From Coprobacillus sp. CAG:605 (GTDB taxonomy: Bacteria > Bacillota_I > Bacilli_A > RF39 > UBA660), in assembly GCA_000433255.1 (NCBI GenBank), contig HF998235.1, positions 13 to 64,012 of the forward strand: a DNA stretch of 64,000 nt. Reading direction: 5' to 3'. Of this stretch, positions 10,821 through 42,852 are shown piece after piece; position 1 is the first letter of the stretch; each line of letters begins with the position of its first letter. The position numbers and the translations under genes were made by a program. Below the pieces are notes generated by a model. The model was not told the origin of the DNA. It saw only the letters and a list, made by a program, of their open reading frames with translations, and ran no database searches.

Positions 10821-10822
10821 AA

Positions 10823-12352: not shown

Positions 12353-12374
12353 AACTATCTCCTCCATAGAAAAA

Positions 12375-12565
12375 AGCCATAACATAAGGACGAGAAAACC
12401 CGTGGTACCACCTTATTTTATGACTAATCATACACTTAAATATCTTAACGCGATTAACGATTTAGCTCCCAAATCCATACTCCCTATTCATTTTTATTTC
12501 TCTTCCACCATCAAGAAACTCTCTTTAAAAAACTCCTAGGTACCCATTTGTTCCTCACTAATTAA
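12375..12565 (-). promoter_or_regulatory. T-box leader (probable Met specifier AUG) controlling metG
   Basis: Minus strand contains the T-box sequence GGTGGTACCACGG, a terminator ending GGCTTTTTT just before the RBS, AGAGA and CGTTA boxes, and AAAATGAAT as a candidate specifier loop. Confidence 0.8.
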
Positions 12566-12581
12566 CCATAGTTTACCATTA

Positions 12582-13052
12582 TTAACATGAAATATCAAGT
12601 TTATTTGTAATCAAAATATTAAGTATTTGACCCACTATTTCATTACAACTACTATCACTAACTAAGATAATCCCTTCCACATTTGAATCAATTATCACTG
12701 GTCTTAAATCACAAGCACTACAAATCTTATCTTTTTCCCTCATTAAATCATATAGTGATAATCCAACCAATCTTTTAACATCTAAATCGGTAATCTCAGT
12801 ATTATTAAAAATAATTTTTTCCCTATTTGTCGCTAGTATTTTTACATGCATATTATCCACAAGCATTTTCAAAAGTCCAATCACATACTCATCATAATTC
12901 TTAATTGCTACCGCTTTAACTAACTTTATATAATTATCATCAATACTTATTTCTAAACTATCATCTTTCTTTATTGACAATCTCTTTCTTATATCTTTAG
13001 GGATTACAATACGTCCTAATTCATCTATTTTTTTAATCGAACCATTATTCAT
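12582..13052 (-). CDS. spoVT: AbrB-domain transcription regulator, SpoVT-like
   Basis: N-terminal KIDELGRIVIPKDIRKRLSIKKDDSLEI (SpoVT/AbrB swapped-hairpin) plus a C-terminal domain. Directly downstream of mfd as in B. subtilis. Confidence 0.65.
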   Translation of the reverse strand: MNNGSIKKIDELGRIVIPKDIRKRLSIKKDDSLEISIDDNYIKLVKAVAIKNYDEYVIGLLKMLVDNMHVKILATNREKIIFNNTEITDLDVKRLVGLSLYDLMREKDKICSACDLRPVIIDSNVEGIILVSDSSCNEIVGQILNILITNKLDISC

Positions 13053-13098
13053 TTCATAACCTCACTACCCTTATTTTATCCACAAGTATCTTTTTTAT

Positions 13099-13121
13099 AA
13101 CTAAAACAACAAAAAAGAGGC
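13099..13121 (-). terminator. Terminator after mfd
   Basis: Minus strand reads agaggc-tttg-gcctct followed by T6. Confidence 0.7.
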
Positions 13122-13130
13122 CAAAGCCTC

Positions 13131-16100
13131 TTAATTACTTAATTTATCCACTTCATCTTTTATTAAATTCAATAAATCTACCAAGTAATAGACAAAATGT
13201 TTATCTAAATTATTCACAGGTAAAGTAATATATACTTTATTTAATACTGAACGAAATTGAAACTTTCTTGAAATATTATAAGCTTGAATAAATAACTTAT
13301 CAAATTTTAAATTATGAACCAAAGTAGTTGGCAGTTCAATCTCCACTAAAGTACTATTCTGTACAACTTTTGTTATTCCTAGACTATTAGCTAGTTTTTC
13401 AAACCATTCTTCATACATATAAACTCTAATCTTTTCATCAATCTTACCAAATCTATCCTCAATTTCATGCTGAATGCTTTCTAATTTTTCATAACTATCA
13501 ATTTCATTAATCTTTTGATGAATTTCAATTTTTAAACTCTCATCACTTACATACTTATCACTAATATGAGTATCAACATTAATTAAAGCTTTATTACTAG
13601 TATCTTCTTTAGGTATTTCTTCCCCATGAATTTTTTTAATCTCTTCATCAACCATTTTCATATACAAATCTAGGCCAACCGCTGAAACAAATCCCGCTTG
13701 ATCACTACCCAAAATATCCCCAGCACCACGTAGCGACAAATCACGCATAGCAATACGATAACCACTACCTAACTCAGTAAACTCTTTAATAGCTTGTAAT
13801 CTCTTTATCGCAATATCATTTAACATCTTATTTTTATCATACATTAAATAAGCATAAGCAATTTTATTACTACGCCCAACACGACCACGAATTTGATACA
13901 ACTGACTTAAACCAAATCTGTCAGCATCAAATATTATCAATGTATTAGTATTAGGAATATCTATTCCAGTTTCAATAATCGTCGTACATAATAAAATATC
14001 ATACTTATAATTAATAAAATCATCCATTACATCTTCAATTTCACTTTTATTCATTCGACCATGAGCCGTTACAATCCTAGCTTCCGGAACTAACTTTTGC
14101 AATTCACTTCGTTTATTTTCTAAGCCATCAACATGATTATATAAAATAAATATTTGTCCTTTTCGCGCTAATTCCTTATATATAGCATCTTTTACAACCA
14201 TATCAGATTCCGCCATGACATAGGTTTGAACAGGATATCTATTAACCGGTGCCGTATCTATAATGGATAAATCTCTTAACCCTGACATCGCCATTTTCAA
14301 AGTTCTTGGAATTGGTGTTGCAGATAATGTTAAAACATTAACATCATTCTTATATTGTTTAATTCTTTCTTTATGTGTTACTCCAAAACGTTGTTCTTCA
14401 TCAACTATTAATAACCCTAAATTCTTATATTCAATGTCCTTACTAAGCAAACGATGCGTACCAAATACTATATCTATAGTTCCATTTTTTAAGCCTTCTA
14501 AAATTCTTTCCGTTTCTTTAGGAGTAGTAAATCTATTTAATAACGCTATTTCTACCGGAAAATTTTTAAATCTTTCCAAAGCATTTTCATATTGTTGCTT
14601 TGAAAGTATTGTTGTAGGACATAAATAAGATACTTGCATATTATTAACAACTGTTTTAAACATTGCTCTAAATGCTACTTCAGTCTTTCCAAAACCTACA
14701 TCTCCACATAATAATCTATCCATAGGAACATCTTTTTCTAAATCCTGATTAATATCTTTAAAAGCTTTTTCTTGGTCAGCCGTTGGAACATACTTAAAAT
14801 CAGCATCAAATAAATCTTCTATTGGATCACTTTTAAAAGCTGGCCCTTTTATCTTAGCACGCTCCGCATAAAGCTTAATAAGTTCCATAGAAATATCATG
14901 AACTTTTTTCTGCATTGCTCGTTTAGTCTTTTCCCAAGAGGTACTATTTAGCTTATTAATTTTAGGAACATCCCCATCTTTAGAAGAATACTTAAATATA
15001 TTACTAATCTTTTCTACAGGAACATAAACTTTATCATCACCATCATACTTTATTAGTAAGTAATCTTTTTTTATACCATGATTATCTAACGTAACAACAC
15101 CACTATAAATACCTATTCCATGAGCTTCATGAACGACATAATCACCAACTTCCAACTGGTCAAAATTATGTATTCTTTTACCAATTCGATAAGAATTTTT
15201 ATATTTAATTTCTTTATGATTTATTTTTTCAATATCAAATTCCGCTATTACACAGTAATTAAATATTTCAAAACCATTATCTATTTTCTTTGAAATAATA
15301 TTTATTTTATTAGTAATAATTTCATTTCCAGTGGTAATTCTTGCCGCGGGAAATATTTCTATTATATCATCAATTTCATTTTTATTAGATAAATAAAATA
15401 TAATAGTATTATTACTTTTTAATTTATTTTTTACATAATTTTCTAATAAATCAAAGTTAGAATTAAAATTTTCTATTTCTTTTGTTTGATAATGAAATTT
15501 ATTATCATTTAAAACCTCTAAACTATCCAAATAAATCCAGTTCGAAATATTTAACTCTTCCATTTCAAACATATATTTTTTATTCTCATTTAGCGATTGA
15601 TTATATTCCATTATCTCATCACAAAGTTTAGCATACCCTGCATCAATTTGCGATTTTTCAATCATAAATACAAAAGGCTTTCCTAAATAATCCAAGATTG
15701 AACTCTTATTTGCCGTTTCAATCTCGATATAAGGTAATATCGTAATCTTATCTATCTCTTTAATAGATAACTGATTATTCTCATCAAATACTCTTACTGA
15801 ATCAATTTCGTCACCAAAAAATTCAATTCTAACTGGATGCTCTTGCTCGATTATAAATAAATCAATTATAAAACCACGAACCGCATATTCACCAGTCGCT
15901 GCAACCATAGATTCCTTAGTATATCCAAACTCATCTAAAATTTGAATAAACTTATCTCTATTTATTTGCATCCCCTTCTTTAACTCAAATTGTGTCTTAT
16001 TAGCATATTTATAGTCAGGAAGATATCTTAAAAGTCCCATTAAATTCGTAACGACAATATGTTTTTTATTATCCTTTAATTGATTTAAAGTTTCCAAACG

Positions 16101-16358
16101 TTTAATTTTCAAATCAGGCGAAATCGCCACCGCTACTGAAGAAATAAAATCATCCATTGGAAATATTAAAACATCCTTATTTAAAGTACTTAGTAAATCA
16201 TAATATTGATTAGCTTCATATAAACTATTAGCTAAAACTAAAACGTTCTCATCATGAATTTCAAAATACTGATTAACGTAAAAAACGTTTAACTCTTTCG
16301 TTAAACCAATTACTTCACTATTATTAACATAATTATATAACTCATTTAAATAATTCAT
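13131..16358 (-). CDS. mfd: Transcription-repair coupling factor Mfd
   Basis: 1075 aa with a CarD-like domain (VGDYVVHEAHGIG) and helicase motifs (GDVGFGKTEVA, DEEQRFG, TATPIPRTL, QLYQIRGRVGR). Confidence 0.96.
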   Translation of the reverse strand: MNYLNELYNYVNNSEVIGLTKELNVFYVNQYFEIHDENVLVLANSLYEANQYYDLLSTLNKDVLIFPMDDFISSVAVAISPDLKIKRLETLNQLKDNKKHIVVTNLMGLLRYLPDYKYANKTQFELKKGMQINRDKFIQILDEFGYTKESMVAATGEYAVRGFIIDLFIIEQEHPVRIEFFGDEIDSVRVFDENNQLSIKEIDKITILPYIEIETANKSSILDYLGKPFVFMIEKSQIDAGYAKLCDEIMEYNQSLNENKKYMFEMEELNISNWIYLDSLEVLNDNKFHYQTKEIENFNSNFDLLENYVKNKLKSNNTIIFYLSNKNEIDDIIEIFPAARITTGNEIITNKINIISKKIDNGFEIFNYCVIAEFDIEKINHKEIKYKNSYRIGKRIHNFDQLEVGDYVVHEAHGIGIYSGVVTLDNHGIKKDYLLIKYDGDDKVYVPVEKISNIFKYSSKDGDVPKINKLNSTSWEKTKRAMQKKVHDISMELIKLYAERAKIKGPAFKSDPIEDLFDADFKYVPTADQEKAFKDINQDLEKDVPMDRLLCGDVGFGKTEVAFRAMFKTVVNNMQVSYLCPTTILSKQQYENALERFKNFPVEIALLNRFTTPKETERILEGLKNGTIDIVFGTHRLLSKDIEYKNLGLLIVDEEQRFGVTHKERIKQYKNDVNVLTLSATPIPRTLKMAMSGLRDLSIIDTAPVNRYPVQTYVMAESDMVVKDAIYKELARKGQIFILYNHVDGLENKRSELQKLVPEARIVTAHGRMNKSEIEDVMDDFINYKYDILLCTTIIETGIDIPNTNTLIIFDADRFGLSQLYQIRGRVGRSNKIAYAYLMYDKNKMLNDIAIKRLQAIKEFTELGSGYRIAMRDLSLRGAGDILGSDQAGFVSAVGLDLYMKMVDEEIKKIHGEEIPKEDTSNKALINVDTHISDKYVSDESLKIEIHQKINEIDSYEKLESIQHEIEDRFGKIDEKIRVYMYEEWFEKLANSLGITKVVQNSTLVEIELPTTLVHNLKFDKLFIQAYNISRKFQFRSVLNKVYITLPVNNLDKHFVYYLVDLLNLIKDEVDKLSN

Positions 16359-16367
16359 ACCAATTAC

Positions 16368-16919
16368 CTATTTCTTATTATACTTTTGCATACAATACTC
16401 TATATCATGATTAGCAAAATCTACTATGATGTCTTTAAATATAGGAGCCATTTCATTAAATTGTTCTAAATTTTCTTTACTAATTCTTCCTAAAACATAA
16501 TCTTTAGTATCCATACTTCTATCATGCGCAATACCAATTTTCAACCGAGGAACCATATCAGTTCCTAAAGAAGCAATTATTGACTTCATTCCATTATGTC
16601 CGCCCGCACTACTTTTATATTTTAACCGATATTTTAGAAATGATAAGTCTAAATCATCTTGAATAATCAAAATATCTTTATTTTCAATTTTATAATAATT
16701 AGCAAATTTGGCAACTGCATCTCCTGAAAGATTAACGTACGTTAAAGGCTTTATAAAAATAACTTTTTCACCATTAATATTTTCTTCACAACATAAAGCA
16801 TTGAACTTTTTGACAAATTTTTTATTTCCCGGGAAATAATCTAACACCATAAACCCAATATTATGTCTTGTACATTCATACTCTTTACCATAATTTCCAA
16901 TACCAACAATTAACTTCAT
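16368..16919 (-). CDS. pth: Peptidyl-tRNA hydrolase
   Basis: MKLIVGIGNYGKEYECTRHNIGF and GGHNGMKSI motifs. Confidence 0.93.
   Translation of the reverse strand: MKLIVGIGNYGKEYECTRHNIGFMVLDYFPGNKKFVKKFNALCCEENINGEKVIFIKPLTYVNLSGDAVAKFANYYKIENKDILIIQDDLDLSFLKYRLKYKSSAGGHNGMKSIIASLGTDMVPRLKIGIAHDRSMDTKDYVLGRISKENLEQFNEMAPIFKDIIVDFANHDIEYCMQKYNKK
16824..16837. promoter_or_regulatory. Perfect Noc-binding-site palindrome inside pth
   Basis: ATTTCCCGGGAAAT. It is translated as YFPGN in pth. Confidence 0.6.
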
Positions 16920-16932
16920 TTTATATCACATC

Positions 16933-17637
16933 CTAATCAAAAATTCTTTTATAACTCCTATGCTCTAATACATTTACTGGCGGATTAACAATCAAGCCAT
17001 CAGAACCATTTTTTGTCGCTTTAATAAGAACCATTATAGCACTCTTTTGATATCCTGCATAAACAAATTGTAACTTTTTAACACTAAATTTATATTTAGT
17101 TAAAATCCCTATAAGTTCCATTAATCTTTCTGGACGATGCACTAAATACAAAGGTGCTTTATTTTTTAAAATATATTTAGCCGTCATTACAATTTCTTCT
17201 AAATTAGTTTTTATTTCATGACGAGCTATAGCTAAACTTTCTTCTGTATTAACATATGACCCTTTATTTAACTTAAAATAAGGCGGATTACAAGTAACCG
17301 CATCAACAGATTCGGGTAAAATATATTCCAAGCTCTCATTAAGATTAGCATTAATAATTTTAACTTGTTTTTCTAAATTATTAAGTATAACCGAATTATA
17401 TGCTAATTGAAAAACATTTTTTTGTAATTCAAAACCAATTATTTTACTATTAACTCTAGTTGAAAGTATCAAAGGCACAGCCCCATTACCACAACAAAAA
17501 TCAACTATTGTATTTAATCCGGCCTTATTTTCTACAAATTCGGCAAGTAATATTGAGTCTAAAGAAAATTTAAATAATTTCTCATCTTGATATATTTCTA
17601 ATCCATAATCAAATAAATCATTCTTTACTACTTTCAT
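16933..17637 (-). CDS. Class I SAM-dependent N6-adenine methyltransferase, TrmN6/YabB-like
   Basis: SAM-binding DFCCGNGAVP and the motif IV CNPPYF. Confidence 0.7.
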   Translation of the reverse strand: MKVVKNDLFDYGLEIYQDEKLFKFSLDSILLAEFVENKAGLNTIVDFCCGNGAVPLILSTRVNSKIIGFELQKNVFQLAYNSVILNNLEKQVKIINANLNESLEYILPESVDAVTCNPPYFKLNKGSYVNTEESLAIARHEIKTNLEEIVMTAKYILKNKAPLYLVHRPERLMELIGILTKYKFSVKKLQFVYAGYQKSAIMVLIKATKNGSDGLIVNPPVNVLEHRSYKRIFD

Positions 17638-18418
17638 TATTATCTAGTTCAATCTCCTTAACTTCATTTCCAATTAAAACTTTATATTTTCTATTTAATA
17701 TATCAACAGATATAACTTTGCCTTCACCTTGCTCTAAAGTAATCTTCTTACCAACAGTAGGCATCCCGACACGACAACAACTATATTGTTCATCTTCGTA
17801 AGTTAAACAACATAATAATCTACCACAACAACCATTAATTTTAGAAGGATTCAAAGCAATATTTTGATTCTTAGCCATATTCATACTTATAGAATCAATA
17901 TGATTTAAAAAACCAGCACAACACAGTCTTCTCCCACATACACCATATCCATCAATACTTTTAGCTTTATCACGAGCCCCAATTTGTCTTAATTCAATTC
18001 TTGTTTTAAATTTACCAGCTATTCTTTTCGCAAGTTCACGAAAATCAATACGTTCATCAGCCAAGAAATTTAATAATAATTGTTTTCTATCAAAGTTAAA
18101 GCTCGAATCCATAAAACGCATATTCAAGTTTAATTCATTAGCAACTTCTTTAGCATAATTCATAGCTTCTTCTTGTTCCTTCAATAAACTTAAATGTTTC
18201 TTATAATCATTTTTGGTTGCAATACGAATTATTGGACTAATTTCCTCAATCGAAGTTTTTAAATCTGTTTCATTAACTTTCATTACTACTTTACCAAATT
18301 GTTCTCCTCGTTCTGTTCGAACAATAACCGTTACATTAATTGGACATTCTAATTTTTCTGCATTAAAATAATAAATTTTTCCATTTGGTTTAAATTCTAC
18401 ACCATAAATATTACGCAT
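17618..18418 (-). CDS. ricT: PSP1-domain protein RicT/YaaT (stage 0 sporulation)
   Basis: PSP1-like N-terminus and the Cys-rich C-terminus CGRRLCCAGFL ... CCGRLLCCLTYE. Follows holB as in B. subtilis. Confidence 0.85.
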   Translation of the reverse strand: MRNIYGVEFKPNGKIYYFNAEKLECPINVTVIVRTERGEQFGKVVMKVNETDLKTSIEEISPIIRIATKNDYKKHLSLLKEQEEAMNYAKEVANELNLNMRFMDSSFNFDRKQLLLNFLADERIDFRELAKRIAGKFKTRIELRQIGARDKAKSIDGYGVCGRRLCCAGFLNHIDSISMNMAKNQNIALNPSKINGCCGRLLCCLTYEDEQYSCCRVGMPTVGKKITLEQGEGKVISVDILNRKYKVLIGNEVKEIELDNNESSKE

Positions 18419-19244
18419 TAGCTCTCCTCATTTCTATGACAAACTGATCTAATAATAGCTCTAAACTTACATTTGCTTGATTTAATGTTATAGTTTTTTC
18501 TATAATTGCAATTTGCTTTTTTAATTGTTCAAGAGAAATTCCTGATAAAACGTCATTTTTTTTATTTCCCGGGAAATATTTTTCACTAATTGCACTCATA
18601 TACATATCAAAAATAACAGTTAACAAAGAATTAATTTCATTTCTCGTACCAAAAGACGGTAAAATAAATTCTTTATTTACTATCAAATCACAATTTTCCA
18701 AAATTCTTCTTACATATTCATTTGCATATTCAATTATTTTCTCATCAACTACACTCTTAGTCGCATAATCGATTTTCATAATTTGACAACGACTCTTTAT
18801 CGTATCAATTACTCTCTCTTTATTAGTAGTTATAAAGAACCCTAAAATATTATCTTCCGGTTCTTCTAAAAATTTTAACATACAGTTTGAAGCAGAATCA
18901 TTCATCATATCAGCATCTTTTATTATATATATATTATACCTTGAATACACAGGTTTAGTACTAAACTTTTCTTGCAACTCATTAAGTTGCTGTTTTTTTA
19001 TACTCATACCATCTGGCTCAACAATTATAATACTAGGTAAATTCAATAAATCAATTAACTTACATAAATTGCATTGTTCAGTACAATCACTCTTATACTT
19101 ATCAGGACAATTAACAATCTTTAATAGTTGTTTTATATCATTCAAACATAATTCATAATTATTTGTTTCAATTAAAAAAGCATGAGAAAGCTTATTATCC
19201 TCATATTTCTTTTTCAATTCATTAAATTTATCTGCTTCAAACAT
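18411..19244 (-). CDS. holB: DNA polymerase III delta-prime subunit HolB
   Basis: HAFLIE start, LKFLEEPE and IKSRCQ motifs. ATG 19244 is preceded by GGTGG. Confidence 0.85.
   Translation of the reverse strand: MFEADKFNELKKKYEDNKLSHAFLIETNNYELCLNDIKQLLKIVNCPDKYKSDCTEQCNLCKLIDLLNLPSIIIVEPDGMSIKKQQLNELQEKFSTKPVYSRYNIYIIKDADMMNDSASNCMLKFLEEPEDNILGFFITTNKERVIDTIKSRCQIMKIDYATKSVVDEKIIEYANEYVRRILENCDLIVNKEFILPSFGTRNEINSLLTVIFDMYMSAISEKYFPGNKKNDVLSGISLEQLKKQIAIIEKTITLNQANVSLELLLDQFVIEMRRANA
18564..18577. promoter_or_regulatory. Perfect Noc-binding-site palindrome inside holB
   Basis: ATTTCCCGGGAAAT. It is translated as YFPGN in holB. Confidence 0.6.
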
Positions 19245-19260
19245 AACTACCACCAATCAA

Positions 19261-19398
19261 TCATATTATCAATAATTTTATAATAACTAGTGCTAATACA
19301 CCAAAACCACCTAAAAAATAAGTAATTATTATATTTATAATATTAATAGGAATAATGACGTTAACATACTTTAACATAACATTTAAACCATATAACAT
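19261..19398 (-). CDS. Small hydrophobic BofA-like protein (absent from the ORF track)
   Basis: Manual translation gives MLYGLNVMLKYVNVIIPINIINIIITYFLGGFGVLALVIIKLLII. The IPIN-x8-FLGxxG-x-ALV pattern matches the C-terminal half of B. subtilis BofA as I recall it. It occupies the recR-bofA position. The frame stays open upstream to 19452 without a canonical start. Confidence 0.4.
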   Translation of the reverse strand: MLYGLNVMLKYVNVIIPINIINIIITYFLGGFGVLALVIIKLLII

Positions 19399-19489
19399 TA
19401 AAAAGGAAAAAACTAATTTTCTTATAACAAAATATACTTTTTTTATAGTTAATCACCAACCAATATAATTATATTAGGCTTACTATAAT

Positions 19490-20089
19490 TTATGATATAT
19501 CTTTTCTATCATTTAAGGCATTAAGAAGTGTAATCTCATCCAAATAATCAATATCAACACCCATTGGAATACCATAAGACAAACGAGATATTTTAACCCC
19601 TTTATCTTCTAATATCTTCTTTATATATAAAGTAGTCGTTTCTCCTTCAATAGACGGCTTCAAAGCTATAATAACTTCAGGATTTTCCAAAGTTTTTACT
19701 CTATCAATTAGTGAAGATAAATTAATATCTTCAGGCCCTCTATCATCAATTGGTGAAATAAGCCCATCTAAAACATGATACACCCCATTATACTTACCAG
19801 CCTTTTCAAAAGCAAAAACGCCTTTAAAGTCCTCTAAAACACATATTACGTTATGATTTCTCGAAATATCTCGGCAAACATAACATACATCTTCATCTGT
19901 TAAACCACCACAAATACTACATCTCTTTAATTTCTTTTTGGCCGTATTTAAGGCTAAAGAAAAATCAGCAACTTCCTCTAAAGACATATCCAAAATTGCC
20001 AGTGCCATACGTTCAGCACTCTTTTCGCCAATACCAGGCAATTTCTTAAAGTATTCTATTAATTCTAATAAATTAGCAGGATATATCAT
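19490..20089 (-). CDS. recR: Recombination protein RecR
   Basis: LPGIGEKSAERMA (HhH), a C4 zinc finger (CSICGG ... CYVC) and a Toprim domain. Confidence 0.95.
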   Translation of the reverse strand: MIYPANLLELIEYFKKLPGIGEKSAERMALAILDMSLEEVADFSLALNTAKKKLKRCSICGGLTDEDVCYVCRDISRNHNVICVLEDFKGVFAFEKAGKYNGVYHVLDGLISPIDDRGPEDINLSSLIDRVKTLENPEVIIALKPSIEGETTTLYIKKILEDKGVKISRLSYGIPMGVDIDYLDEITLLNALNDRKDIS

Positions 20090-20385
20090 TAAAATAATCC
20101 GTTAAGAGCACTTCCATATTGACCCATAGCTTTTTCCATAGCTTGATCAACATTCTTAATAGCATCATTTGTGGCAATCATAATCATATCTTGAAGTACT
20201 TCAATATCATCCTTAGTTAAATCTTCATTTTTTATTACTACTTCAGTTACTTCTTTATTACCATTCATTGTAACTTCAACTAATTCAGACTTTCCTGTAA
20301 ATAATTGTTTACCCACTTCCTCTTTTTTCTTCATTATATCTCTTTGCATTCTTTGTGCTTGAGCCATTAAATTTTGCATATTCAT
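20089..20385 (-). CDS. ybaB: Nucleoid-associated protein YbaB/EbfC
   Basis: 98 aa, MQNLMAQAQRMQ ..., located between dnaX and recR. Confidence 0.9.
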   Translation of the reverse strand: MNMQNLMAQAQRMQRDIMKKKEEVGKQLFTGKSELVEVTMNGNKEVTEVVIKNEDLTKDDIEVLQDMIMIATNDAIKNVDQAMEKAMGQYGSALNGLF

Positions 20386-20402
20386 AAATTTATTCTCCTC
20401 TT

Positions 20403-22052
20403 CTATTTTGTTTCATAATTATTTCCAAAAATTTCATTAGCTAGCTTCTCCAACTCACTAGTATTTTCTTCAATAATTATGGAATCATCCATCATAGTAT
20501 ATTTATAACCACTTTTTAAGTTAGTAATATACTTATTACGTGCCTCTTCCCATACTTTTGGTGAAATAGACACCAATTTATATTCTCTACCAAAGAATAT
20601 TTTAAAATCTTTTTCTACTGATTCAATATTCTCATTAATTAAATCATTAGTATTATTTATCTTATTAACCAATACAGCATAATTATTAGATGCTGCAACA
20701 AGCTCAGTATCTACTATATATGAAAGTAACAACTTATTCGCATTACTTTCATAAATAACAAAATCGTCCCATTTTTCTTTTAGCTCTAACAAATACTTTT
20801 TTTGAGCTCCTACAAAAGTATTATTTATTCTGGCATCCACATTAAAGTGAGCCTTTTTTTCATTAACTATTGGAGCCTCATTATTTATTTCTGGTTCTTT
20901 ACTTCCTTTTATTTCCTGGGAAATATTTTCTTTAGTTGGTCTTTCTTCGACTTTTTGCTCTATTTTCAAAGTAGAACCACTCTTTTTTTCCTCAACTGGA
21001 GCTTTAACATCCTTATTTGAAATTTTATTTCCCGGGAAATATTTTAAAATTACAATTTCTAAAAAATTATATGGAGCGATATTACTTTTAATTTCTTGAA
21101 GTACTCTATTTAATTCAAAAACCATACTATAAAGCATATCAAAATCAAGAATACCATTATAATTATCTAATTTTATATCTATTAAGATTGATTTTATTCT
21201 ATCTATCAGCTTTTCAATTAATATTCTTACATCGATACCATTATTTTTAAATTCTTTTAATAGTTCTAAAGTGCCTTTAACATCCCCAGAAGTAAATACA
21301 TCCATAAATTCTTTTACTTTTTTATTTGATATACTTCCAAAATTGCTTGTAACATCATCTACATCTATTTTAGTATTACGTGAAGAAATTTGGTCTAAAA
21401 TACTTAATGCATCACGCATACCACCATTACTCATATAAGCTATTTCTTTTAAAGCGGCATCCGTTATATCAATTTTTTCTTCGTTACAAACATAATTTAA
21501 ACGATTAACTATATCATCAACTACAATTGGTTTAAAATCAAATCTTTGACAACGCGATAAAACTGTAATTGGAACACTTTGAATATCAGTTGTTGCTAAT
21601 ATAAATACTACATTAGATGGTGGTTCTTCCAATGTTAATAATAAAGCATTAAAAGCACTAGTAGATAGCATATGAAATTCATCAACTATATATACTTTAT
21701 ACTTTGAATTTGCTGGAGCTAAACGAACATTGTTAATTATTTCTCTTATTTCATCTACTCCATTATTAGAAGCAGCATCTATCTCAATTATATCTGGATT
21801 TGTTCCAAAACTTTTACACATTTCACACTCATTACAAGGATTTCCATCTTTTGGATTTAAGCAATTTAAAGCCTTAGCAAATATTTTAGCAGAACTTGTT
21901 TTACCGGTACCACGTGGGCCAGTAAAAATATAAGCATGCGAAATATGTTCATTTTTTATAGCATTTTTTAATAATGTTTTTGTATATTCTTGACCTACTA
22001 AAGAATCAAAATTCTGTGGTCTATATTTTCGATAAAGAACTTTATATTCCAT
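20403..22052 (-). CDS. dnaX: DNA polymerase III gamma/tau subunit DnaX
   Basis: YRKYRPQNF, GPRGTGKTS, zinc module CNECEMC, DEFHMLS and SRCQRFDF motifs. Confidence 0.96.
   Translation of the reverse strand: MEYKVLYRKYRPQNFDSLVGQEYTKTLLKNAIKNEHISHAYIFTGPRGTGKTSSAKIFAKALNCLNPKDGNPCNECEMCKSFGTNPDIIEIDAASNNGVDEIREIINNVRLAPANSKYKVYIVDEFHMLSTSAFNALLLTLEEPPSNVVFILATTDIQSVPITVLSRCQRFDFKPIVVDDIVNRLNYVCNEEKIDITDAALKEIAYMSNGGMRDALSILDQISSRNTKIDVDDVTSNFGSISNKKVKEFMDVFTSGDVKGTLELLKEFKNNGIDVRILIEKLIDRIKSILIDIKLDNYNGILDFDMLYSMVFELNRVLQEIKSNIAPYNFLEIVILKYFPGNKISNKDVKAPVEEKKSGSTLKIEQKVEERPTKENISQEIKGSKEPEINNEAPIVNEKKAHFNVDARINNTFVGAQKKYLLELKEKWDDFVIYESNANKLLLSYIVDTELVAASNNYAVLVNKINNTNDLINENIESVEKDFKIFFGREYKLVSISPKVWEEARNKYITNLKSGYKYTMMDDSIIIEENTSELEKLANEIFGNNYETK
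20911..20924. promoter_or_regulatory. Noc-binding-site-like palindrome, one mismatch, inside dnaX
   Basis: ATTTCCTGGGAAAT. It has the same TTTT / TATTTT flanks as the perfect sites. Confidence 0.45.
21027..21040. promoter_or_regulatory. Perfect Noc-binding-site palindrome inside dnaX
   Basis: ATTTCCCGGGAAAT. It is translated as YFPGN in the dnaX linker. Confidence 0.6.
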
Positions 22053-22850: not shown

Positions 22851-23576
22851 ATGTTTCACGTGAAACATAGTAATTATCTTTTTAAAACGATATATCAGTC
22901 CATTTAAGTTAAAATTATATTTATGATTATCTTTTATTTAATGTATTATTCTCAATGTTTCACGTGAAACATTGGACTTTTGTATCTTTAACTTAAAACA
23001 TGGTCAAATAACTACCTAAATATTTATAAAATAAAGTAAAAACCCTATCTCATTGACTTTAATTCCATAAAATTAAAACAATTATCAACTATGTTTCACG
23101 TGAAACATTAGAAAAAGTAAAATAAATTTAGTAATGAAACTCATATAAAATATAGAAATATTAAAAATAATTATTTATCACGTATAAAAAATAAAACTTC
23201 ATTAGTGTATTTTAAAAATTTGAAAAAAGTTTAATTGAAATTTTAAATTAATTAACAATGTTTCACGTGAAACATATATACTTTGATTAATTTTTTTAAA
23301 AGATAAATTAAAAATTATATAAAATAGATATGTAGATTAATTATTGCTGCTGTTTACTTATAAACACCCAATGTTTCACGTGAAACATTGAGTTGACTTT
23401 TAAAATTATTGCTGGACTTATTATAATTTTAATATTTTTTATTTATTAAATAATTAATGCTTATTAAAATAAATATTTATCCACTATGTTTCACGTGAAA
23501 CATATAAAAAAATACATATCTATTTCTAAATATGTATTTCTATTTAAATAAGTTAACAATGTTTCACGTGAAACAT
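22851..23576. repeat. Array of seven identical 18-bp palindromes ATGTTTCACGTGAAACAT (each a perfect parS core)
   Basis: Copies at 22851-22868, 22955-22972, 23091-23108, 23258-23275, 23371-23388, 23486-23503 and 23559-23576. Spacers are 86, 118, 149, 95, 97 and 55 bp and are unrelated to each other. No ORF of 60 aa or more lies in 22622-23588. Confidence 0.9.
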
Positions 23577-29151: not shown

Positions 29152-29637
29152 TTATACCACATTATCTTTCTTTTTGGCTGGCTTTTTTGCTTTTTTGACG
29201 ATTTTTCTTTCATTTAAAACATAATTTAATCTAGTTGCTCGCAAAATCAAGTTTGTAAAAACATAATATGAAATATTTACTGAAATTTTTGACATATTTT
29301 TAAATATTATTTCTGTATTTTTATCAATTTTTCGATAATCTTTAACGTTGTTTAAAGAAATCCAAGAACAATTCTTACTCCGAGGTGAAGATGTTGGAAA
29401 AAATATAATGTCTTTACTTTCTTCAATAATAATTGGTGATTTAGTAGAATACCCCGTTAATATCCGAGTCCCCCTTCTACGCCCTTCAAACGTACTACCA
29501 AAATATTCACAACTTTTCTTAATAATATTAAGTGTATTATCTTTTATTAAATAAGATTTATTCCCCTCATATATTTTAGTATTTGGATAATTGCTTATAA
29601 TTGCCAATGTATCTTCATTAATCTCATAATTTTTCAT
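29152..29637 (-). CDS. ComK-family transcription factor homologue
   Basis: SCEYFGSTFEGRRRGT ... KSPIIIEES ... IIFFPTSSPRSKNCSWISL aligns by eye with B. subtilis ComK (SCRFFGSSYAGRKAGT ... KPPIMVDPS ... IFLFPTLSSTRPQCGWIS). Confidence 0.7.
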   Translation of the reverse strand: MKNYEINEDTLAIISNYPNTKIYEGNKSYLIKDNTLNIIKKSCEYFGSTFEGRRRGTRILTGYSTKSPIIIEESKDIIFFPTSSPRSKNCSWISLNNVKDYRKIDKNTEIIFKNMSKISVNISYYVFTNLILRATRLNYVLNERKIVKKAKKPAKKKDNVV

Positions 29638-36351: not shown

Positions 36352-38217
36352 ATGAAAAACTATGAAATAATTGTTGTAGGAGGTGGCCATGCGGGTTGTG
36401 AAGCTTCTCACATTGCAGCCTATAAAGGCCATAAAACTGCCTTAGTAACTATGAATATCAAAAATATTGCAGATATGCCTTGTAATCCTTCAATAGGTGG
36501 AACTGCTAAAGGAATAATAGTTCGTGAAATCGATGCCCTAGGTGGTTTAATGGGCCGTGTTGCCGACCGTTCTCATTTTCAAATAAAAATGCTAAATAGT
36601 GGTAAAGGTCCTGCTGTAAGATCACTCCGTGCGCAAGCTGATAAAATAACCTATCCTAAAAATATGCTTCAAGAATTAAAAAACTTAGAAAATCTTGATA
36701 TCATTGAAGGCATGGTTGAAGATATTATAGTAGAAAATAACGTAATTAAAGGAATTATCCTTGAAACTGGTGAAAAAATAATGTGCCAATGTCTAATTTT
36801 AACCACTGGTACTTATCTTAAAGGAAGCATTTTATGCGGTGCGGAAAAACACCCCGGTGGTCCACATGGTGAAAGAAGAAGTAACTATTTAAGTGATAAT
36901 CTAAAGAAAAATGGTCTTCATATTCAACGTTTAAAGACCGGAACTCCTCAAAGAATAGCGGCTTCCTCAATAGATTTTTCAAAAATGAAACCAGAAACTG
37001 GCGACGATACCTATTGGACATTCTCCCATGATTTTCCTCCTCAATATAAAATAAACGAACAACAAAAATGTTATCTTATCTATACCACTTTAGAAACCAA
37101 AAAAATCATTGAAGATAATTTAGATAAATCAAGTATGTATGGTGGTTACGTTGAAGGCATTGGTCCAAGATACTGTCCTTCAATTGAAGATAAAGTAGTT
37201 CGTTTCCACGATAAAGACCATCATCAACTTTTTTTAGAGCCAGAATCTCTTTATTATGATGATTGGTACCTACAAGGTTTTTCAACTTCAATGCCTCATG
37301 ATATTCAAGAACAAATGGTTCATTCCCTACCCGGACTTGAACATGCCAAGATAACTAAGTATGCCTACGCTATTGAATACGATGCCATTGACCCACTTCA
37401 AATTAACCCATCCTTAGAATCTAAAGTTCTATCTGGCTTATTTACGGCTGGCCAAATAAATGGCACTAGTGGTTATGAAGAAGCCGCCGGCCAAGGTATA
37501 ATGGCTGGTATAAATGCAGCTTTAAAATTAGAACAAAAAGCCCCATTAATCTTAAAAAGAAATGAAGCTTACATCGGTGTTTTAATAGATGATTTAGTAA
37601 CTAAGGGAACTAATGAACCTTATCGCATGCTAACTAGTCGTGCTGAATTTAGATTAATTCTTCGTCATGACAACGCTGACTTAAGATTAAGAGACCTAGC
37701 GTACAAAGTAGGAACCATTTCTCAAGAACAATACGATAATTTAAATCTAAAAAAGAAACAAATTCAAGAATTAACTAAAATTTTACAAGATAATAAATTA
37801 AAATTAAACGACGAAACTAAAAAAATATTTCAAGAAAACAACATTGAAGTACCAAGTATTTCAACATCCTTCTATCAATTATTAAAACGTCCAGGAATAT
37901 CTATTCAATTTATTAATAAACTATTAGATTTTAACTATCCTGAAGCTGTTTTAGAACAGGTTGAAATATCCACTAAGTACGAAGGATATATCGTTAAAAC
38001 TAATAAAGAAATCGAAAAAATGTTGAAATTAGAATCTAAGCAAATACCTAAAGATATAGATTATTCTAAAGTAACAAACTTAGCTAGCGAAGCCCGTCAA
38101 AAATTAGAAAAAATTCGTCCGGAAACTATTGGACAAGCTACACGTATATCAGGCGTTAACCCAGCCGATATTTCTATTCTTACTATCTATTTAAGAAAGG
38201 AATATCCTCATGAATAA
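36352..38217 (+). CDS. mnmG: tRNA uridine 5-carboxymethylaminomethyl modification enzyme MnmG
   Basis: VVGGGHAGCEA FAD motif and GPRYCPSIEDK. Confidence 0.97.
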   Translation: MKNYEIIVVGGGHAGCEASHIAAYKGHKTALVTMNIKNIADMPCNPSIGGTAKGIIVREIDALGGLMGRVADRSHFQIKMLNSGKGPAVRSLRAQADKITYPKNMLQELKNLENLDIIEGMVEDIIVENNVIKGIILETGEKIMCQCLILTTGTYLKGSILCGAEKHPGGPHGERRSNYLSDNLKKNGLHIQRLKTGTPQRIAASSIDFSKMKPETGDDTYWTFSHDFPPQYKINEQQKCYLIYTTLETKKIIEDNLDKSSMYGGYVEGIGPRYCPSIEDKVVRFHDKDHHQLFLEPESLYYDDWYLQGFSTSMPHDIQEQMVHSLPGLEHAKITKYAYAIEYDAIDPLQINPSLESKVLSGLFTAGQINGTSGYEEAAGQGIMAGINAALKLEQKAPLILKRNEAYIGVLIDDLVTKGTNEPYRMLTSRAEFRLILRHDNADLRLRDLAYKVGTISQEQYDNLNLKKKQIQELTKILQDNKLKLNDETKKIFQENNIEVPSISTSFYQLLKRPGISIQFINKLLDFNYPEAVLEQVEISTKYEGYIVKTNKEIEKMLKLESKQIPKDIDYSKVTNLASEARQKLEKIRPETIGQATRISGVNPADISILTIYLRKEYPHE

Positions 38218-38926
38218 AGAAGAATTTCTAATTGCTGTATCAAATCTAGGTTTAAATCTTACCATGCAACAACAAAAAGACTTAGAAACATACCAGTCTT
38301 TCCTAGAAGAATATAATAAAACAACCAATCTAACAACAATTGTTAATGAATTCGAAGTATACTTAAAACATTTTTATGATTCCTTAACAATTATTAAAGA
38401 AATTGATTTAACAAAAGTTGATACTCTCTTAGACATTGGAACAGGTGCGGGATTTCCCGGTATGGTATTAAAAATCTGTTATCCTAATCTTAATGTTACT
38501 TTGCTTGATTCCAACAACAAAAAACTAATCTTTTTAGATAATTTAAAAAATAAATTAAATATAGATGTAACTCTTGTTCATAGTCGTGCCGAAGAATTTA
38601 TTACTGACAATCGTGAAAAATTTGATGTTGTTGTAACTCGTGCTGTTGCATCCCTTCCTATCCTTTGTGAACTTGCAATTCCTTACTTAAAAGTAAACGG
38701 CTATTTTATTGCTATGAAATCAAATGCCTTAGAAGAAATCAATGCCAGTACTAATATCTTATCCAAATTAGATAGTAAAATAATTAATATCAATGAATTT
38801 GAATTACCTCATGAACATTCCAAAAGAACATTAATAAAAATAGAAAAATTAAAACCAACTAATCATCAATATCCAAGGCAATACAATCAAATAAAAAAAG
38901 AAGTAAGTAATCTCTTAACAAAATAG
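38210..38926 (+). CDS. rsmG: 16S rRNA (guanine527-N7)-methyltransferase RsmG
   Basis: DIGTGAGFPG SAM motif and TRAVA. Follows mnmG. Confidence 0.93.
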   Translation: MNKEEFLIAVSNLGLNLTMQQQKDLETYQSFLEEYNKTTNLTTIVNEFEVYLKHFYDSLTIIKEIDLTKVDTLLDIGTGAGFPGMVLKICYPNLNVTLLDSNNKKLIFLDNLKNKLNIDVTLVHSRAEEFITDNREKFDVVVTRAVASLPILCELAIPYLKVNGYFIAMKSNALEEINASTNILSKLDSKIININEFELPHEHSKRTLIKIEKLKPTNHQYPRQYNQIKKEVSNLLTK

Positions 38927-38943
38927 TGGTTACTTACTTTTTA
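38901..38943 (+). terminator. Long-loop hairpin plus T-run at the rsmG 3' end
   Basis: aagtaagtaa (38901-38910) pairs with ttacttactt (38930-38939) and is followed by ttt. The 19-nt loop makes it atypical. Confidence 0.4.
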
Positions 38944-39116
38944 AATTTTATAAAAAATAAAACTATTATTATAATCAAAATATAAAAATAACTCTCCAAT
39001 ATAATACCAAAATTTATTATTTTAAAATATCTTTAAGTAAAAAAATTATGGTTGCAAAAAAATTCAATATAGAGTATTATTAATATAGACAAGTATAATA
39101 AAGGGGCTGATTTATA

Positions 39117-40499
39117 ATGCAAATGGAATCACAAATAGTACAAGTAAATATCGACGATATAATCCCAAATAGGTTTCAACCACGACTTTCTTTTGACGAC
39201 CAAGGTTTAAAAGAATTAGCGGCTTCTATAAAAGAACATGGGATAATTCAACCCTTAGTGCTACGTAAACTTGGAAGTAAATATGAAATAATTGCTGGCG
39301 AAAGAAGATATAAAGCCTCTCAAATGGCTGGACTAACTACAGTACCTGCTGTAATTTCCAATATTGATGATAATTCCAGTGCCGAAGTAGCTTTAGTTGA
39401 AAATATTCAAAGAAGAGACCTAACTCCAATTGAAGAAGCTAGAAGTTACAAAAATCTTCTTGATAAAGGTTATCTAACTCAAGAACAGCTAGCTAAAAAA
39501 ATGGGTATCTCTCAATCTGCTATTGCCAACAAACTCCGTCTTTTAAATCTTGATGATGAAGTACAACAGGCTCTTTTAGAAGGAAGAATAAGCGAACGTC
39601 ATGCCCGTGCCCTTCTATCACTAGATAGCAAAACAGCTCAAAAAGAATGGCTTAATCGCATTATAACGGATCGTATGACTGTAAGACAACTAGATCAAGA
39701 ACTAAAACAAGTTCTAAAGAAAAATACTACTAATAAAGAAATTCCTTTAGTAGATATCAACCCAAACGTTGAAGAAATCAAAGATAAAGCTGTAGATATC
39801 AATCCAAATCAAAATAAAAATAGAAATGTGGCGAATCTGATGGTACCAGAAGACATCCTAACAGACTATAGTAGTTCTCTACCTCAAAATACTAGCGATA
39901 TGAAAACAATTAATGTTCCAAATAGCATGGATATAATGTCTAACATGCCTGCTGACGATAACCAAAGTCCCGTTAATAAATTCTTTAATACCTTAGAAAG
40001 TACTCCTGCTAACGTTAATGGTAACAATGCTTTCTCTGCTGAAAATACTTTTAATATGAATAGTGCTCCGGAGTTAAATTTTAACTTCAATACTCCAACT
40101 TCTTTCGATACTTTAACTCCACTAGAACAACAACCTAAAAAAGATATCGAAATCTTTGACCCAACTCCAAAACAAGAAGAAACAATTACAACACCAACTC
40201 CTGATTTTAATGCCTTTGAAACCCCAATTGAACTAAACCCAAATAATCGTTTCTTCACTCCTGAACCAAATAATATTACTTCAACATACCAAGAATCAAC
40301 ACCTAAACAAGAAGAATTATTTGACCCAATGAGTATGGTTGAGTCACTTGAACCAATTAAAGTATCAAGTTCATTAGATAATTCCATTGCCATGATAAAA
40401 GAAACCATAACTAAACTTCAAAACCAAGGAATTAGAATAAGTTATAATGAAACTGACGAACCTTTAGAACATAAAATAACTATTACTATTGATAAATAA
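39117..40499 (+). CDS. noc: ParB-family protein of the Noc (nucleoid occlusion) type with a long low-complexity insertion
   Basis: ParB N-domain (IPNRFQPR, GERRYKAS). HTH segment SQSAIANKLRLLNL ... ISERHARAL matches B. subtilis Noc (GQSTIANKLRLLKL ... ITERHARAL) better than Spo0J (SRPHIANHLRLLTL ... LSMGHGRTL). C-terminus IAMIKETITKLQNQGIRISYNETDEPLEHKITITIDK parallels the Noc C-terminus. Lies directly after rsmG. Confidence 0.8.
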   Translation: MQMESQIVQVNIDDIIPNRFQPRLSFDDQGLKELAASIKEHGIIQPLVLRKLGSKYEIIAGERRYKASQMAGLTTVPAVISNIDDNSSAEVALVENIQRRDLTPIEEARSYKNLLDKGYLTQEQLAKKMGISQSAIANKLRLLNLDDEVQQALLEGRISERHARALLSLDSKTAQKEWLNRIITDRMTVRQLDQELKQVLKKNTTNKEIPLVDINPNVEEIKDKAVDINPNQNKNRNVANLMVPEDILTDYSSSLPQNTSDMKTINVPNSMDIMSNMPADDNQSPVNKFFNTLESTPANVNGNNAFSAENTFNMNSAPELNFNFNTPTSFDTLTPLEQQPKKDIEIFDPTPKQEETITTPTPDFNAFETPIELNPNNRFFTPEPNNITSTYQESTPKQEELFDPMSMVESLEPIKVSSSLDNSIAMIKETITKLQNQGIRISYNETDEPLEHKITITIDK

Positions 40500-40506
40500 C
40501 AAAAAT

Positions 40507-40535
40507 GACTGCTTTTTAAGGCAGTCTATTTTTTT
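40507..40535. terminator. Bidirectional terminator between noc-like and the convergent HTH gene
   Basis: gactgc-tttttaag-gcagtc flanked by A5 and T7. Confidence 0.7.
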
Positions 40536-40738
40536 ACATTTAAAACTTTTATACCACAAATATGGCAAAATTCCAAATATGTTTTTAACTTTATATTAAT
40601 CGCACCTCTTTCAACAGCTTTAACCCATTGAACTGATTTGTGCATCTTTTTAGCTAATTCTAGTTGCGTAATATTAGCACTCTCACGAATAAACTTAAAA
40701 ACATCAGGAATATTATAATCTTCAAAACTAATTTTCAT
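40526..40738 (-). CDS. Small XRE-family helix-turn-helix protein
   Basis: ITQLELAKKMHKSVQWVKAVERG is a Cro/C1-type HTH. ATG 40738 is the likely start. Confidence 0.6.
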   Translation of the reverse strand: MKISFEDYNIPDVFKFIRESANITQLELAKKMHKSVQWVKAVERGAINIKLKTYLEFCHICGIKVLNVKK

Positions 40739-40899
40739 GAATTTCACCTATTAATTTTATATCAAATAGCTATCAAGCAATAACGAAAAAGTCTATTCTC
40801 ACTAGACTGTAAGACTACATAAGGGACCTAGTTAAAATAAACTTTATAATAATAAATTTTATCAAAAAAGATAATTCCCCTTAATCATAATAAACTTTA

Positions 40900-42852
40900 T
40901 TATTCAGTAATATTTTCCTTATTACCTTCATATTCCATTTCACTATTCACATACTCACTACCTTTAACATAATAGTAAACATACATTTTTTTATCATTAT
41001 CAGCCTGATTACCCGTTATCGCATCAAGTGGCACCCCTACTACATTCTCAGGCACATCATACCACCTAGCTTCTTTATCTTTTAAATATTCCTCAACAGT
41101 ATTTACCCATATATTCTTTGAAATATTTCCATCTACTGGATTCATTTGCCTATTATCGTCATATCCATTCCAAACCAACATCAAAATATCTGGATTGTAC
41201 CCAATCATATAACAGTCAGTCCCCGACGACCCAGTTTTCATAGCATACTTTCGACTTATCTTTGAACCTAAACTAATAATCGTTGGCGTATTATAATCAA
41301 TAAAAGCCGAATTATATGTCGCCGTTAGCATTTCATTTAAAATAAACGTATAATTAGAATTTAAAACTTGAGTACTATTATTTTTCTTTTCGTATAAAAT
41401 ATTTCCATGCATATCCGTAACCTTTAAAATTACCCCCAAGTCTTTTTTATATCCATTACTAGCTAAAGTAGTATAAGCATTAGCAAAATCCCACATCGAG
41501 ATCTCTGCTGTTCCTAAAGGCAGTGACGGGATAGTCGGTAAGTCTTTTTTTATCCCCATTCTCTTTGCTGTTTTAACCAACATATCTTCTCCTAAAAACA
41601 AATGAGTCTTCACCGCATAAATATTATCACTATAACTTAACGCCGCCGCCATAGTAATTTCTTTATTAGCATATTTTTTATTATAATTTTGTGGTGAATA
41701 CGTATCATTATTAGCAAATACAAACGTTGTTTCCTCACTTAAAAACTTTGAAGAAGATGTCATTCCATTTTCTAACGCCGCATAATAAAGTATCGGTTTC
41801 ATAGTACTACCAACTTGTCTTTCAGCACTAACTACTCTATTAAATTGACTTTTATTATAATCTCTTCCCCCAACTAATGCCATTATATTTCCCGTATTTG
41901 GATCAATTATCATACTAGCCACTTGCATCTCATTATCTGGCATATATTCATTAACATTTTTCTCTAAAATACCTTGTAGTTCAATATCCAAAGACGTATA
42001 AATCTTTAAACCTCCCGTTTCAATTAATGATTTCGGTATTGCAAGTTTATCTAACTCACTTTTAACAACATCTTGATAATACATCAACGTATCTAAATTA
42101 TTTTCACTTCTCTTACCATATAAAATCAAAGTATTTTTAAATAAATTATCCGCATCTTCTTCACTTAACTTCTTATTATTAACCATAGCTTTTGCTACAA
42201 TCTTCCCCCTTAATATTGCATCGTCATAATTACTAATCGGGTTATAATAACTAGGTCCCTTAGGAATACCAGCTAAAACAATACTTTCTTCCAAAGTCAA
42301 ATCCTTTGCACTTTTATTAAAATAATACTCTGCCGCACTACCAATTCCAAAATTACCTTGCCCAAAATTAATCGTATTAATATATCCTTCTAATATTTCA
42401 TTCTTACTATAATGCATCTCTAACTTTAAAGTAAGCCAAGCCTCCTCTATCTTTCTTTCCCATGTCTTATCAAAATCTAAATACAAATTTTTAACATACT
42501 GCTGAGATATAGTACTAGCGCCACCAACTACTTTCCTACTTTTTATATTCTGCAACATAGTTTTTATAATTCTTAAATAATCAAAACCCTTATGCTTATA
42601 AAAATTTTTATCTTCAATACTTATTATGGCATTCAAAAAATCTGGTGAAACATCACTTAAACTTACCCACTTTGAATTTCCACTTCCTTGGTACACAATA
42701 GTCTCATTATGGTCATAAATATAATACTGTCCTGTTGTTTTAATATCTAAAACTGGACTAATATAAGCCATAAAATAAAGTCCTAAAATACTTACAATGC
42801 CTAAGACAAATAATAGACAAAATACCTTAAAAAGTCGCTTAAATCTCTTCAA
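40900..42852 (-). CDS. Class A penicillin-binding protein (glycosyltransferase + transpeptidase)
   Basis: GT51 motifs (EDKNFYKHKGFD, GASTISQQ) and transpeptidase motifs STMK, SDN and KTG. N-terminal TM anchor. Confidence 0.9.
   Translation of the reverse strand: MKRFKRLFKVFCLLFVLGIVSILGLYFMAYISPVLDIKTTGQYYIYDHNETIVYQGSGNSKWVSLSDVSPDFLNAIISIEDKNFYKHKGFDYLRIIKTMLQNIKSRKVVGGASTISQQYVKNLYLDFDKTWERKIEEAWLTLKLEMHYSKNEILEGYINTINFGQGNFGIGSAAEYYFNKSAKDLTLEESIVLAGIPKGPSYYNPISNYDDAILRGKIVAKAMVNNKKLSEEDADNLFKNTLILYGKRSENNLDTLMYYQDVVKSELDKLAIPKSLIETGGLKIYTSLDIELQGILEKNVNEYMPDNEMQVASMIIDPNTGNIMALVGGRDYNKSQFNRVVSAERQVGSTMKPILYYAALENGMTSSSKFLSEETTFVFANNDTYSPQNYNKKYANKEITMAAALSYSDNIYAVKTHLFLGEDMLVKTAKRMGIKKDLPTIPSLPLGTAEISMWDFANAYTTLASNGYKKDLGVILKVTDMHGNILYEKKNNSTQVLNSNYTFILNEMLTATYNSAFIDYNTPTIISLGSKISRKYAMKTGSSGTDCYMIGYNPDILMLVWNGYDDNRQMNPVDGNISKNIWVNTVEEYLKDKEARWYDVPENVVGVPLDAITGNQADNDKKMYVYYYVKGSEYVNSEMEYEGNKENITE

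Follow-up and report, generated by a model that had tools for sequence, protein, structure and literature searches.

The gene order rsmG-noc-soj-spo0J is canonical in Bacillus subtilis and in many other Bacillota. In B. subtilis, spo0J is followed further along by ychF, rpsF and ssb, and ftsH and tilS lie on the dnaA side of the origin. Chromosomal parS sites bound by ParB can form compact origin-proximal clusters, as in Caulobacter, Pseudomonas and Corynebacterium. Noc, a ParB paralogue of Bacillota, brings DNA to the membrane and prevents division over the nucleoid, and its binding sites (Noc-binding sites, NBS) are typically numerous, spread around the chromosome and missing from the terminus. 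The N-terminal helix of Noc has been described as extremely conserved and required for function (Adams et al. 2015), and nucleoid occlusion in B. subtilis relies on about 70 dispersed NBS (PMC4331003). Here we describe the arrangement of these genes and sites in a 64-kb window (the whole stretch of DNA analysed; 29% GC) which spans the replication origin of Coprobacillus sp. CAG:605 and lies on contig 35 of its assembly. Very probably, the locus represents the ancestral rsmG-noc-soj-spo0J block in two parts, with Spo0J acting at parS and a Noc-clade protein acting at NBS.

The assembly (G000) amounts to 1.20 Mb in 50 contigs, with 92% completeness and an estimated contamination of 0.68%. The relatives used for comparison were uncultured low-GC gut Bacilli with genomes of 1.0-1.4 Mb, among them metagenome-assembled genomes (MAGs) from rabbit, ruminants and Hadza humans. 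Gene neighbourhoods were examined in about 35 members of the lineage and in two outgroups (L073 and L078), and 18 other genomes of the same family were each searched for both ParB proteins.

A soj-spo0J operon on a second contig

The initial annotation had recorded a single ParB-family gene after mnmE-mnmG-rsmG, a seven-site parS array and the lack of any ParA/Soj ATPase or second ParB in the window. It had considered the locus unusual and left three options for the reader of the array: a protein encoded elsewhere, a protein that had been lost, or a Noc-like protein with a broader role. The ParB-family gene and the seven perfect sites were found as described. Whole-genome profile searches, which the annotation had proposed, yielded no other ParB_N match (PF02195) and no ParA-type AAA_31 match (PF13614) on contig 35. 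They did yield a second ParB_N match and a strong ParA match, side by side at approximately 80.7-82.2 kb of contig 25 (G000:C25).

The ParA-type protein of contig 25 is Soj, with 261 aa, a score of 212 bits against PF13614 and the sequence VNQKGGVGKTT, which includes the deviant Walker A motif KGGVGKT. Its neighbour is Spo0J, a 295-aa protein that begins with METKRKALGKGLEQLF, carries the N-terminal LGKGL peptide as well as R173, displays the PNPYQPR, GERR and GKSRS motifs and scores 201 bits against the parB_part model. The two open reading frames overlap by 11 bp and form an operon. On the 5′ side of soj lie tilS and ftsH; on the 3′ side of spo0J lie an MscS-like gene, a transporter gene, ychF, rpsF and ssb. 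Because this operon is conventional, the locus in the window must be regarded as rearranged and not as unusual, and of the three options only the first, a reader encoded elsewhere, has held. The components of a ParABS system are all at hand: a ParA with deviant Walker A motif, a ParB of the Spo0J clade encoded in the same operon, and parS sites near oriC.

Compared with B. subtilis, where rsmG is also called gidB, the genome has the same four genes, with noc directly after mnmE-mnmG-rsmG, an overlapping soj-spo0J operon, and ychF, rpsF and ssb further 3′. Its parS sites match the Bacillus consensus exactly. Unlike in B. subtilis, soj-spo0J does not directly follow noc, from which it is separated here by a contig boundary and in relatives by 52-98 kb; a PBP1A gene in convergent orientation takes the place after noc, soj comes after ftsH and tilS, and the parS sites, instead of being scattered over the origin region, are all contained in one array of ~0.7 kb.

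The split is lineage-wide. Both ParB genes were present, at separate places, in 18 of the 18 other genomes of the family. Where noc and spo0J share a contig, the distance between them is 70 kb (G013), 77 kb (G016), 73 kb (G003) or 98 kb (G010). The near-complete chromosomes give the position relative to the origin. The 1,256,952-bp contig SVAI01000001.1 (G031) has dnaA at 1.045 Mb, noc at 1.054 Mb and spo0J at 1.107 Mb; the corresponding positions in the 1,191,766-bp contig DAJPHG010000001.1 (G032) are 0.362, 0.353 and 0.285 Mb. Both chromosomes thus have noc and spo0J on one side of dnaA, separated by 52 kb in G031 and by 67 kb in G032. In all these relatives taken together, soj-spo0J is found 52-98 kb further out than noc along one flank of the origin, at no more than about 5-8% of the chromosome from oriC. 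In some 30 related species, rsmG-noc is followed by the convergent PBP1A gene and no soj is found within 3 kb. The outgroups have the genes together, as rsmG-noc-soj-spo0J in Bulleidia (L073) and as rsmG-soj-parB in a Clostridia MAG (L078).

Contigs 25 and 35 are physically unjoined in what is a 50-contig assembly of the metagenome type, and one might therefore suspect that the operon belongs to a binning contaminant, a plasmid or a prophage, and that the chromosome truly lacks soj-spo0J. This seems barely credible. The six relatives listed above carry noc and spo0J on one contig. Contig 25 is 95.5 kb long, has the GC content of the rest of the genome (29.6%) and bears the core genes ftsH, tilS, ychF, rpsF and ssb; its Spo0J clusters with the chromosomal Spo0J proteins of sister genomes in the tree described below, and the estimated contamination is low.

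We therefore return to the block in two parts. In its history, noc would have remained next to rsmG and be monocistronic, equipped with a promoter-like site of its own and a bidirectional terminator, and soj-spo0J would have come to lie further along the same origin-proximal flank, in the sequence represented by contig 25. Since ftsH and tilS are found directly 5′ of soj (L003:10296-13623, on G000:C25), the split probably arose via a rearrangement across the origin as opposed to a simple insertion, judging by the position of these two genes in B. subtilis.

The Noc-clade protein and two kinds of sites

The ParB-family protein of the window matches PF02195 (ParB_N; E 6.9e-34) and PF17762 (HTH_ParB; E 4.5e-35). 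Against TIGR04285, the Noc model, it scores 282 bits and the contig 25 Spo0J scores 245. Because NCBIfam scores separate these paralogues poorly, they were identified from a tree and from their specificity residues. The best matches in the Protein Data Bank (PDB) were the Noc structures 7NG0 and 7NFU (197 bits), ahead of Spo0J (182 bits). In a maximum-likelihood tree (IQ-TREE) of 27 proteins, built on the N-terminal and helix-turn-helix (HTH) core, the window protein grouped with its lineage homologues, with helix-bearing Noc proteins from other families and with Noc of G. thermoleovorans (PDB 7NG0) in a clade supported at 100/99. The contig 25 protein fell, with its own homologues and B. subtilis Spo0J (PDB 6SDK), into a second clade of equal support (100/99). 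The window protein retains the CTP-binding motifs FQPR, GERRxxA and ENxQR in intact form, and they align to those of Noc 7NG0; FQPR, GERR and ENxQR are invariant in the alignment of the homologues (A1).

Recognition of NBS has been ascribed to residues Q173, K179, K184 and R201, and recognition of parS to R173 and G201; one lysine, at 179 or at 184, suffices for the NBS preference that depends on Q173 and R201 (Jalal et al. 2020, PMC7383237). Examination of these positions, also proposed in the initial annotation, gave Q, K, N and R for the window protein, three out of four being identical to the NBS set, and R, I, K and S for the contig 25 Spo0J. By sequence, the window protein is a Noc-clade member with NBS-type specificity residues, which argues that it is not the reader of parS.

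The parS array spans 724 bp at 8-9 kb from dnaA, with neighbouring sites spaced by 73-167 bp. A whole-genome scan found no other parS site in the assembly at up to two mismatches. Relatives have counterpart arrays of 4 to 14 sites. One of these arrays, in a Hadza gut MAG (G034, L062; C2:94413-94950), consists of 14 sites in tandem, nine perfect and five reading TGTTCCACGTGAAACA, with a spacing of ~40 bp that is far tighter than in the window. By analogy with the compact clusters of Caulobacter, Pseudomonas and Corynebacterium, which likewise comprise several parS sites near oriC, the array would serve as one ParB-loading centromere. It differs from them in that seven perfect sites occupy 724 bp of dedicated non-coding DNA, parAB is not adjacent, and an NBS cluster lies alongside.

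The NBS cluster holds six of the nine sites found genome-wide at up to two mismatches, the other three being at the level of control palindromes. When three mismatches were allowed, the genome-wide counts of both NBS and parS equalled those of control palindromes of the same composition, giving no sign of degenerate sites elsewhere. No other GC-containing palindrome of the genome is repeated as often as these two motifs, whose sites are restricted to the part of the window between 10.7 and 23.6 kb. An NBS cluster accompanies the parS array in 17 of 18 same-family genomes, always 2-8 kb away, and also in the two near-complete chromosomes. All NBS sites (up to one mismatch) of the 1.26-Mb contig of G031 fall within 6.5 kb, interleaved with parS; over ~700 bp of SVAI01000001.1 (1036968-1037672) the order is parS, NBS, parS, parS, parS, NBS. 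Such interleaving would oblige two ParB-type complexes to occupy one piece of DNA. In genomes of the family's two other genera, an NBS lies ~280 bp 5′ of the noc-like gene (G017:C37:11956-11971 and G018:C10:27043-27058; perfect in one, with one mismatch in the other), which hints at autoregulation. No NBS was found 5′ of noc in the window.

Taken together with the sites, the residues make the inferred assignment of Spo0J to parS and of Noc to NBS well founded. Spo0J would load at the seven-site array, working with Soj and SMC, and the Noc-clade protein would load at the six NBS sites, 2-13 kb past the array. Since their CTP boxes are intact, both proteins likely load as CTP-dependent clamps and spread. 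An alternative is that the Noc-like protein reads the parS array, by itself or besides NBS, and has thereby become the centromere-binding protein: no other ParB is encoded within 64 kb of the array, and where parS and NBS are interleaved, as in G031, spreading complexes would share the DNA in any event. We hold this to be very unlikely. The protein combines Q173 with R201, which disfavour parS and favour NBS (PMC7383237), and is placed by the tree among the Noc proteins; the genome has kept perfect NBS sites together with an intact Spo0J (R173) and Soj; and the Noc-like protein lacks the N-terminal LG(R/K)GL peptide by which ParB stimulates ParA.

Several points nonetheless weigh against a divided block with Spo0J at parS and Noc at NBS. 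The TIGR04285 score of the window protein (282.2 bits over model positions 1-203 of 255) is below the cut-off of 315. Position 184 of the Noc-like protein is Asn instead of Lys, and position 201 of Spo0J is Ser instead of Gly. For either protein, the sites were assigned from sequence. Finally, with an assembly of 50 contigs and 92% completeness, how far contig 25 lies from contig 35 had to be judged by comparison with relatives, and the gaps could contain further sites or genes.

Architecture and role of the Noc variant

With the Noc-NBS systems of B. subtilis and S. aureus (structures 7NFU, 7NG0 and 6Y93), the window protein shares clade membership, the succession of ParB_N, HTH and C-terminal domains, the CTP boxes, and Q173, K179 and R201; the motif TATTTCCCGGGAAATA matches the published 16-bp site. 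It differs from them in lacking the N-terminal amphipathic helix, in having a disordered, motif-bearing linker of ~210 aa before the C-terminal domain, in scoring under the NCBIfam cut-off, and in the disposition of its sites, some six within 10 kb beside parS near oriC as opposed to ~70 dispersed ones.

Residues 1-205 make up the CTP-binding N-terminal and HTH domains, residues 206-417 the linker, and residues 418-460 the C-terminal dimerisation domain. In the AlphaFold2 (AF2) model, the predicted local distance difference test (pLDDT) gives values of ~85-95 for the two terminal parts and of 35-56 for the linker. No amphipathic membrane-targeting helix (residues ~1-10) is present at the N-terminus of the window protein, which has 20 polar or acidic residues (MQMESQIVQV onwards) before QPR; exactly 20 such residues precede QPR in all of the ~35 lineage homologues. 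Canonical relatives from other families of the class begin with MASLFNIL, MRKSIFELF or MGLFDFLG. A hidden upstream start encoding the helix was considered and rejected: only two open codons precede the ATG at 39117, and a ribosome-binding site (AAAGGGG) lies ~10 nt upstream of it. The 14-residue N-terminal extension of some relatives, MINIDYNSKGATKN, was likewise dismissed as a helix, being neither conserved nor amphipathic.

The linker is rich in N, P and T, disordered and divergent across homologues except for short motifs, which in the window protein read VNKFFNTLES (residues 286-295), NNRFFTPEP (376-384) and ELFDPMSM (400-407). The first corresponds to N[KR]FFN[FQ]LE[DE], retained in 29 of 34 homologues by pattern search and in about 22 of 25 in alignment A1; NPNNKFF and LFDPMD recur in the linkers of the lineage. 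The form NKFFNFLED has a helical hydrophobic moment of 0.64-0.67, the highest of the linker, whereas the N-terminal helices of canonical relatives have values of 0.27-0.57; the motif resembles these helices in its succession of a hydrophobic residue, F, D/E/N and two hydrophobic residues. AF2 yields no confident structure for any of the linker motifs and does not predict NKFFNFLED as a helix. The idea of a relocated helix accordingly draws on sequence likeness and hydrophobic moment. NKFFNFLED, NPNNKFF and LFDPMD could mark a membrane-binding helix in a new position, or serve for the docking of partner proteins.

No MinD scoring above the TIGR01968 cut-off was found in the 92%-complete assembly. 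The only ATPases of the ParA/MinD type are Soj and two proteins that were rejected as a hidden Soj or MinD: the one of contig 9 is TadZ-like and encoded beside a TadA-type ATPase, and the one of contig 26, encoded in a capsule operon, is a tyrosine kinase of the CpsD type. The SMC gene is on contig 19 (G000:C19:1035-3976). It is read in two frames, with model positions 1-133 at 1035-1433 and the remainder from 1457, reflecting either a frameshift or an assembly error.

The lack of both the N-terminal helix and dispersed sites makes classical nucleoid occlusion unlikely, unless the linker motif binds the membrane and spreading is extensive. That the Noc-like protein is a classical occlusion factor, spreading far or using many degenerate sites and reaching the membrane via a relocated amphipathic linker motif, is nevertheless worth weighing. 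Its CTP boxes and C-terminal domain are intact; the moment of NKFFNFLED exceeds that of the canonical helices, and the motif resembles SIFELFD, GLFDFLG and SLFNILS of those helices in sequence; with no MinD found, some control of the division site may still be needed. These considerations are offset by the control-level counts of NBS outside the cluster at two or three mismatches and by the confinement of all NBS (up to one mismatch) to 6.5 kb in the 1.26-Mb single-contig relative. Dispersed sites, of which B. subtilis occlusion needs ~70 (PMC4331003), do occur in the same class: four genomes with a helix-bearing Noc have 13-28 degenerate NBS-like sites each (controls 0-3), spread over many contigs among the matches listed. 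The genome of the window shows no such dispersal. Moreover, NKFFNFLED is net acidic as well as not being predicted to be helical. On balance, we consider classical occlusion by this protein unlikely.

It is conceivable, and we put it forward tentatively, that Noc in this lineage is no longer a membrane-tethering factor acting genome-wide and now serves as a second origin-proximal CTP clamp of the ParB type, loaded on a few perfect NBS beside parS. Four changes coincide in the lineage: the helix has been lost, the linker gained, the NBS reduced to a single cluster and noc uncoupled from soj-spo0J. They may be parts of one functional shift, in a genome with no detected MinD. Because the genomes are related, helix loss, linker, NBS clustering and gene-order split count as a single evolutionary event.

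The surroundings of noc and meaning of the split

Table 1. Features of the origin-proximal region discussed in the text (window coordinates)
Feature	Coordinates	Strand	Basis and remarks
NBS cluster, six TATTTCCCGGGAAATA sites (4 perfect, 2 with one mismatch)	10756-21040		metG-tatD spacer, pth, holB, dnaX
parS array, seven perfect TGTTTCACGTGAAACA sites	22852-23575		non-coding stretch after gyrA; 0.12 expected by chance
dnaA	31040-32434	-	TIGR00362 485 bits; reference point for distances
rsmG (16S rRNA m7G527 methyltransferase)	38210-38926	+	PF02527 E 1.2e-46; TIGR00138 165 bits, cut-off 99.5
Promoter-like site of noc, TTTATA-17-TATAAT	38947-38975	+	consensus scan, 10/12 positions
noc (Noc-clade ParB paralogue, 460 aa)	39117-40499	+	ParB_N, HTH_ParB; tree; specificity residues
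Bidirectional intrinsic-terminator-like hairpin	40507-40526	both	GACTGC...GCAGTC; T-runs on either side
XRE-type HTH gene, 73 aa	40526-40747	-	PF01381 (HTH_3) E 2.1e-06
Class A penicillin-binding protein (PBP) gene (PBP1A family)	40900-42852	-	Transgly and Transpeptidase domains; TIGR02074 512 bits

The origin, oriC, is located between ~32.4 and 33.0 kb of the window and is marked by dnaA. The GC skew switches at ~32 kb, and rnpA diverges from dnaA at 33039. Leading away from ~32.5 kb, the minus strand carries dnaA, dnaN, recF, gyrB and gyrA; rnpA, yidC, jag, mnmE, mnmG and rsmG are on the plus strand. Between dnaN and recF, in the slot of yaaA in B. subtilis, there is an open reading frame of 161 aa (29152-29637, minus strand) with no NCBIfam match at E ≤ 1e-5.

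In most of the ~35 lineage members examined, rsmG is immediately 5′ of noc. The promoter-like site between the two genes should be taken as no more than a match to the consensus, since shuffled sequence contains at least as many such sites as the noc region does. Past noc, the initial annotation had listed a bidirectional terminator, a convergent HTH gene of 70 aa and a class A PBP gene. The hairpin was recovered and scores as a terminator for both strands, with a stem of eight pairs on the plus strand and six on the minus strand; this terminator-like element would end both noc and the convergent HTH gene. The HTH gene and its orientation were likewise confirmed, and its length was corrected to 73 aa. 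In tblastn searches it matched only its own genome and a 95%-identical sister (L038), with no match in the ~30 other lineage members, where the PBP gene comes after noc. Given this restriction, the idea that the HTH gene acts together with noc was rejected; the gene probably represents a small and recent insertion outside the noc system. The PBP1A gene, also present as described, lies 3′ of noc and convergent to it in ~30 related species. It is a conserved neighbour of noc in the lineage and occupies the place of soj-spo0J.

A parS array without a reader would have meant that the centromere was an orphan or that the specificity of a ParB paralogue had switched. Neither applies, as the genes for Spo0J and Soj lie at a more distant place on the chromosome, and the separation of soj-spo0J from noc is an ordinary lineage-specific rearrangement. 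What the locus does reveal is a natural variant of Noc, found across some 35 species of uncultured gut Bacilli, which lacks two features that current models regard as indispensable to nucleoid occlusion, namely a membrane helix at the N-terminus and a dispersed set of binding sites, and which has kept the NBS-type residues and the CTP boxes. The variant offers a ready test of which activities of Noc are ancestral, and of the purpose that a ParB-type clamp serves next to the centromere.

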